From NCBI GenBank assembly GCA_964562015.1, contig CAZLRH010000009.1, positions 83,557 to 147,556 of the forward strand: 64,000 bases of DNA, read 5' to 3'. Source of the stretch: an uncultured Opitutales bacterium. GTDB taxonomy: Bacteria; Verrucomicrobiota; Verrucomicrobiia; Opitutales; JABDGR01. This document shows, piece by piece, positions 41,969-53,020 of this stretch. The position numbers were made by a program, and so were the translations under genes. The number at the start of each line of letters is the position of its first letter. Position 1 is the stretch's first letter. Below the pieces are notes generated by a model. That model did no database searches. It saw only the letters and a program-made list of their open reading frames with translations, and had not been told where the DNA came from.

Positions 41969-42064
41969 TTAATACCACACGACCCACGTCAGGGCGGTGG
42001 CGGCAATTACGAGCAGCACCGTCAAAGCGCGGGCCTCCGTGCGCGTGAGCTGGAAAAAGTGCAT
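41969..42064 (-). CDS. Candidate 31-aa small membrane protein (not in the ORF track)
   Basis: ATG 42064 to TAA 41969: MHFFQLTRTEARALTVLLVIAATALTWVVWY; one TM-length hydrophobic stretch, mostly G/C third positions. Confidence 0.35.
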   Translation of the reverse strand: MHFFQLTRTEARALTVLLVIAATALTWVVWY

Positions 42065-42148
42065 GGCGCTTTTTATTTTTTCGCTCCAGGTCGGTGCGTT
42101 CCAAGGTAAACGTCAACCACCGTTAAACGACGTCAACACCGCTAAAAT

Positions 42149-42223
42149 TGGTGGGCCGGCGGGGACTCGAACCCCGAACCAACGGCTTAAAAGGCCGCTG
42201 CTCTACCATTGAGCTACCAGCCC
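42149..42223 (-). tRNA. tRNA-Lys (TTT)
   Basis: GGGCTGGTAGCTCAATGGTAGAGCAGCGGCCTTTTAAGCCGTTGGTTCGGGGTTCGAGTCCCCGCCGGCCCACCA; anticodon loop CT-TTT-AA, encoded CCA. Confidence 0.96.
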
Positions 42224-42336: not shown

Positions 42337-42927
42337 TCACAGAAATTTAATCAGCAACCCCCAGAAAACACAGCCGGCCACCGCCAGCGCGACCGCCAGC
42401 AGGCGCACCCGCCGGGCGAGTTCGCCACTTCCGCGCGCGGCCAGCGCGCCCGCCAGTTTTAGGACGAACCACGCGAGGGGCGGAAAAATAAACGACAGGC
42501 CGCACAGCGTGTACGCACGGCTCGCGAAGGCCGGGTCCGCTGGATTCGAGCCGAGAAATTCTGCCAGCACGGGCACCACGCCGGCCTGGCGTGGCCTGAC
42601 CGCTGACGACGAGGAAGAGGCTCCAGGGCGGGCGCTCGCCGGAAGGGTGGTGGTGTCGGCGGCGGCCTTTCCGTCCGCGGTGGTGTCAGCGATTCCTTCC
42701 GCTGTGGATGAGGCGGTGCCGTTCGAGGCCGCGCCGCTCAACAAATGTGCCCAGCGCCCGCCCTCGGCCTGTTGCAATAACTGCCGCAGGGGCACCGACC
42801 CTTGATCCGTTTCCACGCGATGCAGCAGGCTGATTTCACCGCGTTGGAGCAACTCCGCCAATTGCTCGACTGAGTACGGACCGTCGTGTCGCCCCTTCCA
42901 GGAAACGAAATAGGTGGAGGCGGGCAT
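42337..42927 (-). CDS. GYF_2 (DUF4339)-like domain protein with C-terminal TM hairpin
   Basis: YFVSWKGRHDGPYSVEQLAELLQRGEI pattern, low-complexity linker, and two hydrophobic C-terminal segments. Start ATG 42927. Confidence 0.75.
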   Translation of the reverse strand: MPASTYFVSWKGRHDGPYSVEQLAELLQRGEISLLHRVETDQGSVPLRQLLQQAEGGRWAHLLSGAASNGTASSTAEGIADTTADGKAAADTTTLPASARPGASSSSSAVRPRQAGVVPVLAEFLGSNPADPAFASRAYTLCGLSFIFPPLAWFVLKLAGALAARGSGELARRVRLLAVALAVAGCVFWGLLIKFL

Positions 42928-42932
42928 TGGAA

Positions 42933-43010
42933 GAAAGGCAGAAGGTAGAACGTAGAATGCAGAAAGCTGAACGCAGAAGTTAGAATGGAGAAAGTAGAAG
43001 TTGGAATTAC
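42933..43010. repeat. Degenerate heptamer tandem array (about 10-11 units) directly 5' of the GYF gene start codon
   Basis: AGAAGGT AGAACGT AGAATGC AGAAAGC TGAACGC AGAAGTT AGAATGG AGAAAGT AGAAGTT GGAATTA. Confidence 0.85.
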
Positions 43011-45987: not shown

Positions 45988-48493
45988 CGGCGGAGAATTC
46001 AATCAGGGGAGAAAGGTGGGCGGCGTCGGGGCCGTAAAGCAAGGCCCAGGGGGCGGTGGTGCGGGCCCAGTTGGGCTGGGTGGCGGCCAGGGCCTGGGCC
46101 TCGTCCTGTGTGATGGTGTTTTTTAATTTTTCCACAGCTAGGCGGGTTTGGTCAACATCAACGGGATCCGGTCGTTCGCCGACTGGATTGTCGCGCAACT
46201 GCTTTTCGAGGCTGGCAAGGGTCTCCTGTAGCTGGGCCAAATCCGTTTTTTCGCTGAGTGCGGCCTGGCGGCGCTGGTCGGCGAACCACGCGGGGGTGTA
46301 TCCGACGCTGGCAAGTTCAGTCGCCGGTTTCCCCGCGAGCGCCGCGAACCCCGCCGCCACTATGGTGCTGCGATTCGGCGGCAACAGCCAAAACGGCGCG
46401 GGCGCATGAATGGTTAATCCGCGGGCCAGCCACGCAGGGAGGGCGAGCCGGGTGGGTTCGTTTTGCGCAGCGAGCCAGGCCACCGGCAGGCGCAGGGGTT
46501 TCCACGTCGGCGCCCCGCCGGGCGGCAGGCGTAATAGCAAATAAACGGCCGGGCCGGAGTCACGGCTTAGCCGCACCCAAAAATGGTCGGTGCCCGCCCG
46601 CAACGCCGCATTGCCGGGATTTTGTTTGAAAAAATCACTCTCGGCGGTGAAGACCCGCCACGTCAAACGCACGGCACCCGGACCTTCGGCCAGCAATTGC
46701 AGGAAGCGGCCGCCGGAAGCTCCGCGCGAGGCATCCGGCAATACGATAAAATCGCCGGGCGAGAAATCCTCGCCGCGCAGGTCAAAATGAAACCACTGGT
46801 CGTCGGGCGGCAGGCTGAAATTGGCGGCGGTCACCGCCGCGGCGTGAATCGCCAGGGTGGGCGACTGGAGCAGCGCGGTGACTTCAGGTATTTTAAGCGT
46901 GCCGCTGAATTCCTGGTAGTCGGGGCCTGCGCCTGCGCTGGTGAGATGGTCCACGAGCCAGACCGGGGCGTTGGGCAATCGGGCGATAACGGCCAGTTCG
47001 CTGTCGATTCTGGACCACGCTTGCGTAAGGGCTGCGGCGTCGGGCAAAGGCCAGGTGGTGGGAAAATCACGCAAATCCGCCATCTGCGCGGCCAACGCCT
47101 GCCGGGCGGCGGCGTCCAAGGGCCCGGCCTCGAGGCGCGCCGTGATTTCCTGCAGTTGATTTTGCCAGTCCTTTTGCGCGCCGGGCAAAAGGGTTGAGCG
47201 GAAATAGTCTTCATGCACCTGCGCGAGCTCCGGCGAAGAGACGACCAGGGTCTTCCATAATCCGAGGGCTTTATAAAATTGGCCATCCCGCGCCAGATTT
47301 TGAAGATCGATAAACTGCTGCTGATTGGCGATGGCAGTCGTCGCGGAACTGAGGGTGGTCGCGGGCGAGGGCGGTTGTTGATTCGGCACGCTGGCCGAAG
47401 GTTTGGTCGGGGCCGTAACTGTCACTGTTTCCGGCGGGGGCGGCGCCGGAGTGGGTGCTGCCGGCACCAGCCACATCCACAGAAGTACCCCCACGCCTCC
47501 GGCCAACAACACCCCGAGGCCAATCACCAATCCATTCACCTTTTTATCCACGGTCGTCTTGGACGCCGTCGTGTTTGTAACAGGCGGTGCGGGCAGCGCC
47601 GCCGCCGGTGGCGCGGCTGGCGGAGTTTTCGCGAGGGGCAATGATGGGGTTGAAGTTGTCGCAGCGACCGGCGTGCGCGGACGGGGAGGGGCGGCGCCCG
47701 CGGCGTCACCTTGTCGCGCGCGGCGTGAAACCGCATTCGCGGGTGGAGCCGGCAATAGGGAAAGCTGGGTGAGGTCGAGCATCTCTATGGGCCGCGTGGT
47801 CGCGCCTTCGGCCGGCAAGTCTTTGCGTTGCGCGGCCCAGCAGAAATCTGTCGCACTGTCGGAGCTTTGGAGCGCGGTGACAAACTCGGTGCGCCACGCC
47901 TCGGAGTTATCCATCAACGCCGAGGATTCGCGGAAAAGAGGCAGCAAAAGATTTTCTTGCGCGGAGGTGCAGCGCACCAAGCGCCGGGCGGGTCGCACGC
48001 CTTCGAGCAGGAGGGCGGCGTGGCCGGCATCGCCGGTAAGATTCTGCCAGGTCCGCGCCGGCAACGCGGGCTGCGGGGCGGGCGGCAGTTGCTGCAAGTC
48101 CACCAAGGCGGCGTCGTCCAGCCAGCGAGGCTCAGCGTCCCAGCGATTGAGCCAGCCGGGCCAGCGCAGAAAAATATCCGCCGGCGTCGGCAACCCGGCA
48201 ATTTCCGCCGGTTCCAGCAACAAATGATGCGCTAGAAAATTGGTGCGGCGGGTATAATCGTGGCCGGCGTCCACCAGCCGTGACAACAGCGGAAAGCGCT
48301 GGCCCGCGAGTTCCAGCAAGCGGAATGAGCAAATCACCGGCGCGGGCTGCCAGCCGTGCGGATACACGCTCAGGCCCTCAATCATCGGCACCAGCCTTTC
48401 GCGCAAATCGCCGTGCCGCGCCACCGTGCAAAAGCCTGTGCGGCCGGGCGTCAACCCCTGCGGGGCGCTGGTAAACACAAGTTGCCGGGCCAT
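45965..48493 (-). CDS. GAP1-N2/GAP1-M-like domain protein with Pro-rich linker, TM helix and extracytoplasmic domain
   Basis: N-terminus QLVFTSAPQGLTPGRTGFCTVA..YTRRTNFLAHHLLL..W matches the GAP1-N2 pattern as I recall it; TWQNLTGDAGHA..W..F.T resembles GAP1-M; TM at about aa 322-344. Confidence 0.75.
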   Translation of the reverse strand: MARQLVFTSAPQGLTPGRTGFCTVARHGDLRERLVPMIEGLSVYPHGWQPAPVICSFRLLELAGQRFPLLSRLVDAGHDYTRRTNFLAHHLLLEPAEIAGLPTPADIFLRWPGWLNRWDAEPRWLDDAALVDLQQLPPAPQPALPARTWQNLTGDAGHAALLLEGVRPARRLVRCTSAQENLLLPLFRESSALMDNSEAWRTEFVTALQSSDSATDFCWAAQRKDLPAEGATTRPIEMLDLTQLSLLPAPPANAVSRRARQGDAAGAAPPRPRTPVAATTSTPSLPLAKTPPAAPPAAALPAPPVTNTTASKTTVDKKVNGLVIGLGVLLAGGVGVLLWMWLVPAAPTPAPPPPETVTVTAPTKPSASVPNQQPPSPATTLSSATTAIANQQQFIDLQNLARDGQFYKALGLWKTLVVSSPELAQVHEDYFRSTLLPGAQKDWQNQLQEITARLEAGPLDAAARQALAAQMADLRDFPTTWPLPDAAALTQAWSRIDSELAVIARLPNAPVWLVDHLTSAGAGPDYQEFSGTLKIPEVTALLQSPTLAIHAAAVTAANFSLPPDDQWFHFDLRGEDFSPGDFIVLPDASRGASGGRFLQLLAEGPGAVRLTWRVFTAESDFFKQNPGNAALRAGTDHFWVRLSRDSGPAVYLLLRLPPGGAPTWKPLRLPVAWLAAQNEPTRLALPAWLARGLTIHAPAPFWLLPPNRSTIVAAGFAALAGKPATELASVGYTPAWFADQRRQAALSEKTDLAQLQETLASLEKQLRDNPVGERPDPVDVDQTRLAVEKLKNTITQDEAQALAATQPNWARTTAPWALLYGPDAAHLSPLIEFSADATGSTP

Positions 48494-48534
48494 GGAAGAT
48501 TCGCGGATCGCAGTAAAAATTCAGGAAGCCAAAT

Positions 48535-50967
48535 TCAAGCCTTGGTCGGCGAGCCCGCCACGGTTGCCGGGGCCGGCGTCACGTGCACCACCACGGTTCC
48601 GCGGATGTCATCTGAGGCTGCGCCGACGCGCAATTCGTACGCGCCCGGGTTCACAATATAGCTGTGTGTGGTCGCGTCCCACCGCCGCAAAACTTCGGCC
48701 CGAATTTTCAAATTCACGGTCACTTGCTGGCCCTTCGCAAGGGCGACGCGTTGAAAGGCGCAGAGGCGCTCGCGGGGCAGGTTAGGCGCGGTGGAGTCGG
48801 CTTCATGCGCATAAATTTGCACGACTTCCTCGCCGTCACGCTCACCCGTGTTGGCCACGTCCACCGTCACTTCGATGGTTTCCGTCGCTCCGACACTTTC
48901 CTGGCCGAGCTTCACCGCGCCGTACTTGAACTGGGTAAAGCTCAGGCCATGACCAAAGGCAAATTCGGGCTTCCCGGAAAAATAGCGGTAAGTACGGTTG
49001 GACATGCTGTAATTTTCGAACGCCGGCAAGTCTGCCGTGCCACGGTAAAAGGTGATGGGCAGGCGGCCGGCGGGATTGTAGTCGCCAAAGAGCACATCGG
49101 CCACCGCGGTGCCGCCGTTTTCGCCGGGATACCAGGCCTGCAAAATGGCCGGGAGATTGTCGGCCTCCCAGCGCATGGCCATGGCGCTGCCACTGCAATT
49201 CACGAAAATGACGGGCTTGCCCAGCGCCTGCAGGGCCTGGAGCAACTCCGTCTGCACCGCCGGCAATTCGATGCGGGTACGGTCGCCGCCGGAAAAACCG
49301 TCGACATCGATGCTCATTTCTTCGCCCTCCAGTTGCGCGGTGATACCGCCGACAAAAATCACCGCATCGGCCTGGCGCGCGAGGTCGAGGGCAACCGCCG
49401 GATCCGGTGCCGCGATATTGGCGTTCCGATTTCGTGCGCCATAATAGCCCGTAACCAGCGGGCACCCCGGCGCATAGGTGACCTCGATGCCGGTGATATT
49501 CGCGGCGTTGCGGATGCCTTGCAAAATGGTGATGGGATGCGAGGGCGTGCCGTTGTAATTGCCCAGCAGCATCGTCAGTGAATCCGCATTGGGGCCGATG
49601 ACCGCGAGGCGCTTGACTTTCGTGCGGTCAAGTGGCAGCACGCCCGCGTTTTTCAACAGGACCATCGATTCGCGGGCGGCCTGGAGCGCGAGGGCGGAAT
49701 GCGCGGGCGTATCCACATCCGCGAGGCTGAGTTTCGCAAATGGCACTTTTTCCGGTGGGTCGAACAAGCCCAATTGAAAGCGCCCCGCCAGCACGCGATG
49801 CAGCGCGAGGTTGATGTCGGCTTCACTGACCAAACCTTGTTGCGCCGCGGCGATGAGATAGTTGAAGGTGCGCCCGCAGTTGAGGTCGTCGCCCGCTTTG
49901 AGCGCGACGGCCGCGGCCTCGGCGGGCGTGGCCACCAGCAGGTGGGTTTGGAAAATGTCCGCCACGGCGTCGCAGTCCGACACGACATAGCCCTTAAACC
50001 CCCACTGATTGCGCAAAATCTGCGTGAGCAGCAGGGGGCTACCGGTGGCCGAGGCGCCGTACACGCGGTTGTACGCACTCATCACGCAGCCGACGTTCGC
50101 CTCGCGCACCGCCGCCTCGAAATGCGGCAGGTAGTTGTCGAAAAAATCCGTTTCCGTCGGTTCCACGTCCACCTCGTGGCGCGTGGATTCCGGTCCGCTG
50201 TGCACGGCAAAATGTTTGGCGCAGGCCAGCGCCTTCACGTAATTCGGATCGTCGCCCTGCAAGCCCTCGATGAAAGCCACGCCCATGCGCGCCGTCAAAA
50301 AAGTATCCTCGCCGTAAGTCTCCTGGCCCCGGCCCCAGCGCGGATCGCGAAAGAGATTGATGTTCGGCGTCCAGAAAGTGAGGCCGAAATAGCGGGCGCT
50401 GCCGCCGTAGGTGGCGAAATAGTCGTTGTACTTGCCGCGCGCTTCGGTGGCGATGGTGTCGGCGACGGTCTGGACCAGCGGCGTGTCCCACGTCGCCGCG
50501 AGTCCGATGGTTTGCGGGAAAACCGTGGCCACGCCCGCCCGCGCCACCCCGTGCAGCGCCTCGTTCCAATAATCATAGGCGGGCAAATTCAGCCGGCGAA
50601 TCGAAATCGCACCATTGAGCAGCTGGCTCACTTTTTCCCGGAGAGACATCCGGGCGATCAAATCATCCACGCGTTCATCCCGCGGCTTGGAGGGGTCGGT
50701 GTAAATCACCGGCGTGGTCACATTCGGAATCGCATCCACTTCGACCGGCCCGGGCAGCGCGGGGGCCTCCAGTGCGCCATACACCAAACCTGGCGCATGC
50801 CAAACCGGCAGCGCCTCCCACGAGGCGAAACGCATAAAACCGCCAAGGGGCTTGGCGCTGGCGGAGGGCGCGGCGGGGACGTTGCAACCGCAATCGCTGT
50901 CCTCCACCACGTCCGCGCGGGCCAGCACGGCGAGGAGGGCGGCGGCCAGGATGGCGGGAAATTTCAT
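48535..50967 (-). CDS. Secreted GH3 beta-glucosidase/xylosidase with a C-terminal Fn3-like domain
   Basis: Signal peptide MKFPAILAAALLAVLARA; WNEALHGVAR, TVFPQTIG, NINLFRDPRWGRGQETYGED, KHFAVH, VVSDC (nucleophile Asp), EGEE, YPGENGG, GEEVVQIY. Confidence 0.93.
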   Translation of the reverse strand: MKFPAILAAALLAVLARADVVEDSDCGCNVPAAPSASAKPLGGFMRFASWEALPVWHAPGLVYGALEAPALPGPVEVDAIPNVTTPVIYTDPSKPRDERVDDLIARMSLREKVSQLLNGAISIRRLNLPAYDYWNEALHGVARAGVATVFPQTIGLAATWDTPLVQTVADTIATEARGKYNDYFATYGGSARYFGLTFWTPNINLFRDPRWGRGQETYGEDTFLTARMGVAFIEGLQGDDPNYVKALACAKHFAVHSGPESTRHEVDVEPTETDFFDNYLPHFEAAVREANVGCVMSAYNRVYGASATGSPLLLTQILRNQWGFKGYVVSDCDAVADIFQTHLLVATPAEAAAVALKAGDDLNCGRTFNYLIAAAQQGLVSEADINLALHRVLAGRFQLGLFDPPEKVPFAKLSLADVDTPAHSALALQAARESMVLLKNAGVLPLDRTKVKRLAVIGPNADSLTMLLGNYNGTPSHPITILQGIRNAANITGIEVTYAPGCPLVTGYYGARNRNANIAAPDPAVALDLARQADAVIFVGGITAQLEGEEMSIDVDGFSGGDRTRIELPAVQTELLQALQALGKPVIFVNCSGSAMAMRWEADNLPAILQAWYPGENGGTAVADVLFGDYNPAGRLPITFYRGTADLPAFENYSMSNRTYRYFSGKPEFAFGHGLSFTQFKYGAVKLGQESVGATETIEVTVDVANTGERDGEEVVQIYAHEADSTAPNLPRERLCAFQRVALAKGQQVTVNLKIRAEVLRRWDATTHSYIVNPGAYELRVGAASDDIRGTVVVHVTPAPATVAGSPTKA

Positions 50968-50990
50968 GGCAGGGATTCGACCGGCTTGGC

Positions 50991-52838
50991 TCACGCCCGG
51001 CCGGACGCTGGCACCAAATGGGGCGCCAGCTTGGAAAGCGCCCACAGCGTCGGGATTTCGATCTGGATGGGAAGAATCTGGCGCGGATCGGGGGCGAGAA
51101 ACCCCGCGGCCGGGCCGGTTTCAATGTGTGCGGGCGAATGGCCAAAGGCACTGACCGGAAAATAGCGCACATGGTGCGCCAGGCCCTCGGCGTGGGCGAC
51201 AATCACCGGGTCCACCTTGATCATGAATTCGCGCAGCCGCTCCGAATTCGCATCCACGATGGCATGGTCAAGCCGGCCGTCATGCAGCGGGGACTTGAAC
51301 GCCGGCCAGTCCACCAAATGCTTCCACACGTCGCACTTGCCGATGAGCATCGCGAGCGGGGTCTCGATTTTGCGGCCCGGTTCGAGCACGAGCAGGCGCT
51401 TCACGCGCATTTCCATCTCGGCCAGGATGCTGTCCTGCTGGTCCAGCCGCGTTTGCTGCGAGATTTGCGGGTCGCTCGAATCGGTCAGGATGGAGCGAAA
51501 GCCGAAATTCGAGGTCGGGTCGAACAGGAAGAAGATGGCGGCGGAGCTGGCCACGTGCAGCGCCCCTGGCGAATCGTCGAGGTCCACGCCCGGCTCGAAA
51601 TGCTCGCCCGCGTTGTCGTAAAAAATGACGGAACAATCCGCGCCTTGGGCGGCCTCGTCCGCGGCGGCCTCCTCGGCGGCGGCAAATTCCCGGTGTGCGG
51701 CGTGGCCCAGGGTGTAAATGAAGGGGCGGGGCAGGGCCACCATCTTGCCATAACGCGGAAACCGCTCGTACATCGCGCCCTCGAGCGCGGTTTTCGCCAG
51801 CACGGCGTCCTGCGGCTTCGAGGCCGAGAACAACCGGCTTTTCATTTGGTTGAGCAGCATGTTGCCCGTCGGGTCGCCGTCCTTCAGCACCAATCCGAAT
51901 TCCCGGTAGAGCGCGTGCTGGAGCGTGCGCAGGAGAATGGCCAGGTAATAGGACTTGCCCGCGCTGGGCGCGCCCACAATGGAAAAAATGTGATGGGGAA
52001 TATCCAGAAATCCCGGTGGAAGCTTGCGGCGGCAATGCGGGCAGGCCAGGTCCGCCGAGGGCATCCCCATCGGGTCGATGGCCTGGCCGAGATCGTTGAA
52101 GCGCGTCGGAAAAAACCGCAGGCGGGCGTCTTCGCCGAGCACCGGGTCGCCGCGCAGGCTGTCGTGGGCCGCGATGTTCATGGCGTCGCCAATGTCAAAC
52201 TTCTGCCAGCACACCGGGCACGTCAGCGCGCCGTGCGTGCCGTCCAGCGTCACGGCTTCGGACGGCGTGGCGGGCGGCGGCTTTATCTCGACGCCGAGCA
52301 CGCCGAAAACCTGCGTCAGGTAAAATCCCGCGTTCAGGCCCAGCGGAGCGGCGGCGAACTGCGCCGGGTTCAACCCGCGCTGTTGGATGAAGCCCGGCAC
52401 GTCGCGAAATCGCGTGACGCCGACCGTCTCGCCATTATCCAGCCGGTAAATGCGCCAGTCGTCGGCTTGCACTTTGGCCAACGCTTGTTCGGCTTCGTCG
52501 CCGGCCGCGAGCGCCACCAGGTCGCGGCCAATTTGCAACGACGCCAAGCCGGCCGCGGGCAAGTCCGTCGCGACCGTCAGGGCCTGCCCATTGAGATAGG
52601 CGATGCCCGGTGATTCCGGCGTCACGCGAAAACCATTGGGCGTCGTATCGACGAGACAGCCGGCTTCGCCCGGCGCGAGGCTTAGGGCCGTCCAGGCGGA
52701 ATCAGCGCCATGGCCCAGCCGGCAGGGAAATTTGCCCAATTCACTTTGCTGCCCGCGCAAACAATCAAGCAAAACCAGATGCGGACGCCCCAGCGACTTC
52801 TTGGCCAGCGAGAGCAGGTTGGGCAGGGGCAGGGACAT
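50991..52838 (-). CDS. TRAFAC-class GTPase (DO-GTPase2-like) with N-terminal FHA-like and GYF-like domains and a Zn ribbon
   Basis: CPVC...CPHC; Walker A GAPSAGKS; G3 DNAGEHF; FLFDP; G4 GKCD; C-terminal YFPVSAFG. Start placed at ATG 52838. Confidence 0.8.
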   Translation of the reverse strand: MSLPLPNLLSLAKKSLGRPHLVLLDCLRGQQSELGKFPCRLGHGADSAWTALSLAPGEAGCLVDTTPNGFRVTPESPGIAYLNGQALTVATDLPAAGLASLQIGRDLVALAAGDEAEQALAKVQADDWRIYRLDNGETVGVTRFRDVPGFIQQRGLNPAQFAAAPLGLNAGFYLTQVFGVLGVEIKPPPATPSEAVTLDGTHGALTCPVCWQKFDIGDAMNIAAHDSLRGDPVLGEDARLRFFPTRFNDLGQAIDPMGMPSADLACPHCRRKLPPGFLDIPHHIFSIVGAPSAGKSYYLAILLRTLQHALYREFGLVLKDGDPTGNMLLNQMKSRLFSASKPQDAVLAKTALEGAMYERFPRYGKMVALPRPFIYTLGHAAHREFAAAEEAAADEAAQGADCSVIFYDNAGEHFEPGVDLDDSPGALHVASSAAIFFLFDPTSNFGFRSILTDSSDPQISQQTRLDQQDSILAEMEMRVKRLLVLEPGRKIETPLAMLIGKCDVWKHLVDWPAFKSPLHDGRLDHAIVDANSERLREFMIKVDPVIVAHAEGLAHHVRYFPVSAFGHSPAHIETGPAAGFLAPDPRQILPIQIEIPTLWALSKLAPHLVPASGRA

Positions 52839-53020
52839 GACTGGGTAACGGGCGCGAGCGTGGGTGGGGAACAAGGCGCGACGCGGCCCTCATTGTCCCG
52901 CAATCCCCGTAGGTTTGCCAATCCTGAAAAATCACCCGGTGTGGCCGTCCCTTGAACCGCAAATAGCGGTGGACAAACCGGCCCGGCCCGCGAACACTGG
53001 CCCCCGGAAAATTTTTCTGC

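Follow-up and report, generated by a model that had tools for sequence, protein, structure and literature searches.

A GH3 glycoside hydrolase gene lies between the GTPase and GAP1-N2 genes of a conserved operon in the 64,000-nucleotide stretch of Opitutales DNA analysed here (the window), and is very probably a lineage-specific passenger in that operon rather than a functional component of the GTPase-GAP1 system. A passenger is the most likely reading because the GH3 gene occupies this slot in only one Opitutales lineage. Under the explanation that we favour, a native GH3 gene would have moved, in this one lineage, into the short GTPase-GAP1-N2 spacer, cleanly and as a single gene. The recipient would be an otherwise invariant four-gene operon, comprising genes for the GTPase, the GAP1-N2 protein, a 968-aa transmembrane (TM) protein and a GYF-TM protein. 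Read-through from the operon promoter would transcribe the GH3 gene, and transcription of the downstream genes would pass through it. The GH3 product would act on xylo-oligosaccharides or related plant glycans, presumably without functional coupling to the proteins encoded on either side.

Operon layout and junctions

Five tightly packed minus-strand genes extend across 42.3-52.9 kb of the window (Table 1). The GTPase stop codon (TGA, 50993..50991) precedes the GH3 ATG at 50967, and the GH3 stop codon (TGA, 48537..48535) precedes the GAP1-N2 ATG at 48493. The original prediction gave spacings of 23 nt on the GTPase side and 41 nt on the GAP1-N2 side of the GH3 gene, and both are exact. It also saw no terminator hairpin beside the GH3 gene; a consensus scan likewise found neither a terminator-like nor a promoter-like site at the GTPase-GH3 or GH3-GAP1-N2 junction. 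Near the operon start, the same kind of scan returns a sole minus-strand promoter-like site (52921..52892), which is located upstream of the GTPase gene and is likely the operon promoter. Beyond the last gene, a hairpin that probably terminates transcription in both directions marks the likely end of the transcription unit. Because neither a promoter nor a terminator can be recognised for the GH3 gene itself, read-through transcription is most likely, and the gene is probably co-transcribed with the operon.

Table 1. Features of the GTPase-GAP1-N2 operon and of the GH3 gene within it (window coordinates).
Feature	Coordinates	Strand	Remarks
Promoter-like site, sigma-70-like candidate	52892..52921	-	TTGGCA-18-GACAAT; consensus match 9/12 only
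GTPase gene, 615 aa, first gene of the operon	50991..52838	-	P-loop GAPSAGKS and CPVC/CPHC zinc-ribbon pairs
GTPase-GH3 spacer, 23 nt	50968..50990	-	Without hairpin or promoter-like site
GH3 glycoside hydrolase gene, 810 aa, beta-xylosidase-like, lineage-specific insert	48535..50967	-	Pfam, NCBIfam, PDB
Signal peptide (residues 1-18) and linker (residues 19-97) with acidic CxC (DSDCGC)	50677..50967	-	Homologue comparison
GH3 N-terminal catalytic domain	49789..50565	-	KHFA, RDPRWGR and GFKGYVVSD (nucleophile Asp) motifs
GH3 C-terminal domain	48940..49665	-	Pfam
Fn3-like domain PF14310, standard C-terminal module of GH3 enzymes	48613..48828	-	Pfam
GH3-GAP1-N2 spacer, 41 nt	48494..48534	-	Between GH3 stop and GAP1-N2 start
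GAP1-N2 protein gene, 842 aa, Pro-rich linker and TM segment	45965..48493	-	Conserved partner of the GTPase
Conserved 968-aa gene, central TM segment	43081..45987	-	23-nt overlap with GAP1-N2 stop
GYF_2-like and TM-rich gene, 196 aa, last gene of the operon	42337..42927	-	GYF_2 18.5 bits, under cut-off
A-run/stem/T-run hairpin, likely two-way terminator	42054..42074	.	Between tRNA-Lys (42223..42149, minus) and convergent tpiA

This arrangement could also suggest that the GH3 protein is a recruited effector or accessory output of the GTPase-GAP1-N2 system that acts on glycans of the envelope, of a phage receptor or of competitors once the system is triggered. The gene lies exactly between two core genes, lacks terminator and promoter motifs at both of its ends, and is flanked by genes that are still intact. 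We nonetheless consider an effector decidedly unlikely, on the comparative evidence from related operons and GH3 homologues given below.

The host operon

The gene downstream of the GH3 gene encodes a GAP1-N2 domain (PF20013, 70.1 bits, cut-off 24). The GTPase scores 21.5 bits against DO-GTPase2 (PF19993), which is under the cut-off of 27, and several of its homologues have a precomputed PF19993 match. GTPase-centric conflict systems of the GAP1-N2 type have been described previously (Kaur, Burroughs, Iyer, Aravind 2020, eLife, PMC7159879), and include a zinc-ribbon GTPase, a GAP1 protein with TM segments and, in planctomycetes, a GYF plus TM-rich gene. The host operon matches the planctomycete/verrucomicrobial variant in that work: a zinc-ribbon GTPase gene comes first, then a gene for a TM-containing GAP1-N2 protein, and a GYF-like plus TM-rich gene is also present. 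However, the FNIII-repeat component of GAP1-N2 systems is undetected by Pfam in the window's operon, where the 968/973-aa protein has no such match. PADLOC defence models do not match any of the operon proteins.

GAP1-N2 systems are predicted to act at the membrane or cell wall and to have variable components, some of them separately encoded (PMC7159879). An envelope-active glycosidase is not absurd in principle for such membrane-proximal systems. However, no glycosidase is named among the variable components in that paper, whereas the window's operon holds a GH3 gene: the terms "glycosidase" and "glycoside hydrolase" never occur in its text, and a lone "glycohydrolase" is within a reference title. 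It is highly improbable that the GH3 protein was captured as a periplasmic output, expressed only with the operon on and remodelling either a phage receptor or the glycan on the cell's own surface. If true, NTP-dependent conflict systems would gain their first glycosidase effector, observed in a single lineage just as it was being recruited.

The slot between the GTPase and GAP1-N2 genes in relatives

Genes for the GTPase, the GAP1-N2 protein, p973 (~970 aa) and p229 (GYF-TM) are contiguous at the corresponding loci of all nine relatives whose 20-kb regions were searched by tblastn with the window's proteins (six of them members of the same family, three members of other families in the order). 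GH3 is absent from all nine of these regions. A broader search of 301 Opitutales genomes used the GTPase and the Pfam GAP1-N2 model, and the resulting coordinates were joined. The GTPase is present in 60 genomes, and 52 contain a linked pair, meaning that both genes are on one contig and strand within 3 kb. The alignment gap between the two genes is about 7-105 nt in 51 of the 52 pairs, and only the window's genome (G000) has a gap of 2,500 nt. The three nearest metagenomic homologues of the GTPase (70-72% identity) in a collection of 5.8 billion proteins have a GAP1-N2 gene 6-112 nt downstream. No gene of any kind is found in the slot in the 51 other linked pairs or in the three metagenomic loci. 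Besides the sequence itself, the protein collections searched contain no relative with more than 71% (GH3) or 72% (GTPase) identity, and a contig search of genomes for closer relatives returned only family-level loci that were already known.

The slot is not variable, and the insert is unique to one species-level lineage of Opitutales. A comparison of orthologous loci had been named beforehand as a test of the original prediction, and its outcome goes against the effector idea: the GTPase gene adjoins the GAP1-N2 gene in every related operon examined. The GH3 gene does separate two genes expected to be adjacent partners, since they adjoin in 51 of the 52 linked pairs. The proposal that this is a slot for variable effectors does not fit the relatives, whose slots are empty, and these empty slots also argue against an effector role for GH3 itself, which is not a conserved component of the GTPase/GAP1-N2 operon family.

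Natural spacers between the GTPase and GAP1-N2 genes are 3-20 nt long in most lineages and 102-112 nt long in two. The mostly short distances suggest coupled expression, and it is conceivable that the 2.5-kb insert breaks a tight, probably translationally coupled junction, with the onset of decay or down-tuning of the system. The window's genome also contains an orphan GAP1-N2/GAP1-M paralogue without an adjoining GTPase gene, indicating that GAP1 genes do become uncoupled in this genome. However, strict GTPase/GAP1-N2 coupling is not essential, judging from the natural 102-112-nt spacers, and all four core genes are full length and free of stop codons. The GTPase C-terminus, which reads ..LVPASGRA before the stop, is within the natural variation of its relatives (..LVPGG, ..LVPPS and ..LVPAAH, each before the stop). 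Terminal branches of the window's genome in the family trees are 0.083 for the GTPase, which is the shortest in its family, 0.65 for GAP1-N2 and 0.51 for p973, compared with 0.27-0.52 for relatives. By these estimates the branches are not markedly long and the operon genes are not fast-evolving. A disruptive insertion is therefore very unlikely.

Family and domains of the GH3 enzyme

The inserted gene encodes the three domains typical of its family: GH3 N-terminal (PF00933, 161.6 bits, cut-off 27, 4e-47), GH3 C-terminal (PF01915, 191.9 bits, cut-off 31, 1.6e-56) and Fn3-like (PF14310, 60.2 bits, cut-off 25, 2.2e-16). The best PDB matches are the beta-xylosidases 7zb3 and 7vc6, and the RDPRWGR and KHFA motifs are conserved along with the nucleophile Asp motif G-F-x-G-x-V-V-S-D, with GFKGYVVSDCDAV aligned to GFEGIVVSDYFAV of 7zb3. 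The top-scoring NCBIfam family is xylan 1,4-beta-xylosidase Xyl3A (NF041776), at 878.6 bits over two stretches. This score is under the curated cut-off of 1250 for the equivalog level, and we therefore call the enzyme only "beta-xylosidase-like".

The trio of GH3 N-terminal, GH3 C-terminal and Fn3-like domains is common to this protein and the Xyl3A/BglX-like GH3 beta-xylosidases (NF041776; PDB 7zb3, 7vc6, 6q7i). The catalytic motifs and the signal peptide are also alike, and close homologues are found in xylan-utilisation clusters. Unlike known GH3 beta-xylosidases, the window's enzyme has a verrucomicrobial N-terminal acidic CxC with a shortened linker, and its gene sits inside an unrelated operon, a unique position. 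Judged by its sequence, the protein is an ordinary native Opitutales carbohydrate-degrading enzyme, predicted to be a periplasmic or secreted beta-xylosidase-like exo-glycosidase. From these family and context data we infer xylo-oligosaccharides or related plant glycans as its substrates.

Genomic contexts and phylogeny of GH3 homologues

Thousands of GH3 homologues with about 62-71% identity are present in Verrucomicrobiota. The genes of relatives lie elsewhere in their genomes, as the passenger reading in the original prediction anticipated. The closest homologue, P0002 (71%), is in a xylan cluster among GH53, AXE1 (acetyl-xylan esterase), GH115 and GH10 genes, behind an upstream intergenic region of 315 nt. 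In homologue P0003 and the same-family genomes G005 and G009 (64-66%), the GH3 gene is directly behind moa/modAB genes, and a glucuronoyl esterase gene comes after it in P0003. The gene for P0006 (68%) adjoins ppk. Such xylan-related or other metabolic contexts argue against an effector role. No similarity was detected between the flanks of the window's GH3 gene and those of its closest homologues.

The modAB-linked GH3 genes (G005, G009 and the P0003 contig) belong to the same subfamily, have a CxC N-terminus, and likewise follow closely on an operon of unrelated function. One modAB-linked homologue, in L053, starts 31 nt past modB, so for this GH3 subfamily tight spacing is not evidence of partnership. 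In the window's genome, by contrast, nuoN comes next after modB (C29:8099-8842), and no GH3 gene is present there. No homology was found past modB, and so no GH3 remnant is seen at the modB-proximal site. A genome-wide GH3 search had matches only on contigs C9, C14 and C21 at E <= 1e-20, a threshold that is too strict for a decayed remnant.

A maximum-likelihood tree places the window's GH3 as sister (98/95 support) to a clade of P0002, P0006, P0007 and P0012. The modAB-linked clade is the next sister group, that is, sister to the clade that holds the window's GH3. Strict orthology with the modAB-linked genes was rejected, because the tree joins the window's GH3 to the P0002, P0006, P0007 and P0012 clade instead.

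The N-terminal DCGC segment

The GH3 protein begins with the signal peptide MKFPAILAAALLAVLARA, continues with DVVEDSDCGCNVP..., and reaches its conserved core motif only at residue 98. The extra segment with DCGC that was noticed between the signal peptide and the catalytic domain is thus real. A CxC or CxxC motif occurs within the first 70 aa of 84 of the 99 full-length top homologues. An acidic CxC right after the signal peptide is also present in P0003 (EEPCEC), P0004 (DDPCDC) and P0005 (EEDCDC), and recurs in P0027 (NDDCDC), P0108 (DEPCNC) and others. Most homologues have a malectin domain (PF11721) in the N-terminus, and their catalytic core usually begins 200-225 residues from the start, compared with 98 in the window's GH3. 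The N-terminus of the window's GH3 is thus a shortened version of the CxC plus malectin form.

The first 100 residues of the GH3 protein were compared with the four core proteins. The best BLASTP match has E = 0.12 and corresponds to a low-complexity Pro/Ala stretch, and phmmer gave no significant match. No adaptor or shared domain ties the GH3 protein to the core proteins, which argues against an effector, as does the inherited and shortened nature of its N-terminal segment. The DCGC segment is a feature inherited within the GH3 subfamily and not an adaptor to the GTPase system. With an invariant slot, GH3 homologues located elsewhere and an inherited DCGC segment, the idea of a recruited variable effector gains no comparative support.

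Origin of the insert

The GH3 gene has the composition of its genome. Its GC3 is 0.77, versus 0.73-0.81 for neighbouring operon genes, and in tetranucleotide usage it ranks at the 18th percentile of random chunks for distance to the genome. It is 65-71% identical to its homologues, a divergence in line with the 51-81% identity of flanking housekeeping genes in the same contigs. A recent horizontal transfer was rejected on the native composition and this comparable divergence. We read the insert as an ordinary CAZyme gene that was either relocated within the genome or acquired long ago and fully adapted since. The original prediction offered a recent passenger insertion as one possibility. The passenger part agrees with the invariant slot in relatives and with GH3 homologues located elsewhere, but "recent" is not supported, given the native composition and the lack of any relative above about 70% protein identity.

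No transposase or integrase is encoded in the operon. A search for terminal repeats or a target-site duplication found only short flanking repeats at chance level. The sole pair bracketing the GH3 gene, a 19-nt inverted match of 84% (GTPase stop region versus GAP1-N2 codons 14-19), was judged not significant. The GAP1-N2 start is preceded by ~15 nt (CGAATCTTCC-ATG) similar to those that precede the GH3 start (CGAATCCCTGCC-ATG), a weak and post hoc match in which a CGAATC-N4-6-CC-ATG pattern precedes both start codons. This resemblance may reflect a short duplication of the GAP1-N2 initiation region. The natural short spacers in relatives imply that the GH3 ORF brought along no more than a few tens of flanking nucleotides. 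The locus presents a clean single-gene insertion, with no mobile-element signature to explain its mechanism.

The window is part of contig C9 of a 67-contig Opitutales metagenome-assembled genome, and in an assembly of this kind a chimeric contig or a binning error could have joined the GH3 gene into the operon. However, the exact GH3 protein is found on three contigs, one of which is from an independent ENA assembly (187,027 nt, versus 169,802 nt for the window's contig). The ENA contig keeps all five genes in this order and shows 3 mismatches to the window across 18,433 nt (99.984% identity), which indicates that the gene order did not arise by chimeric assembly. The two junctions are clean, the ORFs flanking each of them are intact, and the native composition also argues against an artefact, which is extremely improbable.

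Implications

The locus is mainly a cautionary case: a gene packed tightly into a conflict-system operon, with no terminator, turned out not to be a new effector. Set beside 50-odd related operons, it shows a one-off insertion of a housekeeping CAZyme. Of minor value is that the locus offers a clean natural case of a single gene in an intra-operon spacer of roughly 10-100 nt with neither neighbour broken. In sister genera, members of this GH3 subfamily likewise follow an operon unrelated to them (modAB). Of more interest than the GH3 gene is the conserved four-gene GTPase/GAP1-N2 operon that carries it.

GH3 genes with the same N-terminal motif and in other operons

An acidic CxC/CxxC motif lies immediately after the signal peptide in the GH3 protein of the window. 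Of 99 verrucomicrobial GH3 homologues, 84 conserve it (P0003, P0004, P0005, P0027 and P0108 among them), and a malectin domain usually comes next. The motif may be a metal site, form a disulfide or serve in anchoring. Elsewhere in Opitutales, in three genomes, a GH3 gene follows the molybdate transporter genes modAB, either 31 nucleotides apart or overlapping, and in one of these (L053, the contig that carries P0003) a glucuronoyl esterase gene accompanies it. The modAB-linked arrangement is a second example of the same CAZyme at the tail end of an unrelated operon. The third GH3 paralogue of the window's own genome shares 35% identity with the window's GH3. Its reading frame is interrupted by a single TGA, which could reflect either a pseudogene or an error in sequencing.

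Features within the window and at other loci
Feature	Location	Strand
Acidic CxC/CxxC motif of GH3	window 50880-50913	
Imperfect heptamer/21-mer tandem array (AAGGCAG/AGAAAGT)	window 42935-43000	
19-nt inverted match, arms either side of GH3 (84% complementary)	window 48438-48456 and 50988-51006	
modAB-linked GH3 loci	L053:5474-11124; L037; L038	
Third GH3 paralogue	contig C21:7517-9793	
Orphan GAP1-N2 + GAP1-M protein, 772 aa	contig C13:89629-91946 (locus L020:14629-16947)	minus

Repeats in and around the operon

The intergenic DNA that separates the GYF-TM gene from the 968-aa gene is largely taken up by a tandem array of ~6-9 copies (70-76% matches). The arms of the inverted match overlie the GTPase stop codon region and GAP1-N2 codons ~14-19; with 105 pairs of this kind in all, we judged the match no better than chance and rejected it as a meaningful pair.

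GTPase and GAP1-N2 genes in Opitutales

The window's genome encodes a second GAP1-N2 protein, the orphan GAP1-N2 + GAP1-M protein on contig C13, whose first ~340 residues are 56% identical to the window's GAP1-N2. Its gene has >250 nucleotides of non-coding DNA upstream, RNase R as its downstream neighbour and no adjoining GTPase gene, and no GTPase homologue besides the window's was found across the whole assembly. In family f4 (G012, G052, G076, G097, G117, G135 and G152), the GTPase match is restricted to residues ~200-607, and GTPase and GAP1-N2 are on separate contigs or unlinked (67.9 kb apart in G052). GAP1-N2 is found in genus g57 of family f30 (G088, G108, G128, G192, G258, G289 and G297), but with zero GTPase matches at E <= 1e-20. 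The f4 and g57 arrangements look like further architectural variants of the GTPase/GAP1-N2 system.
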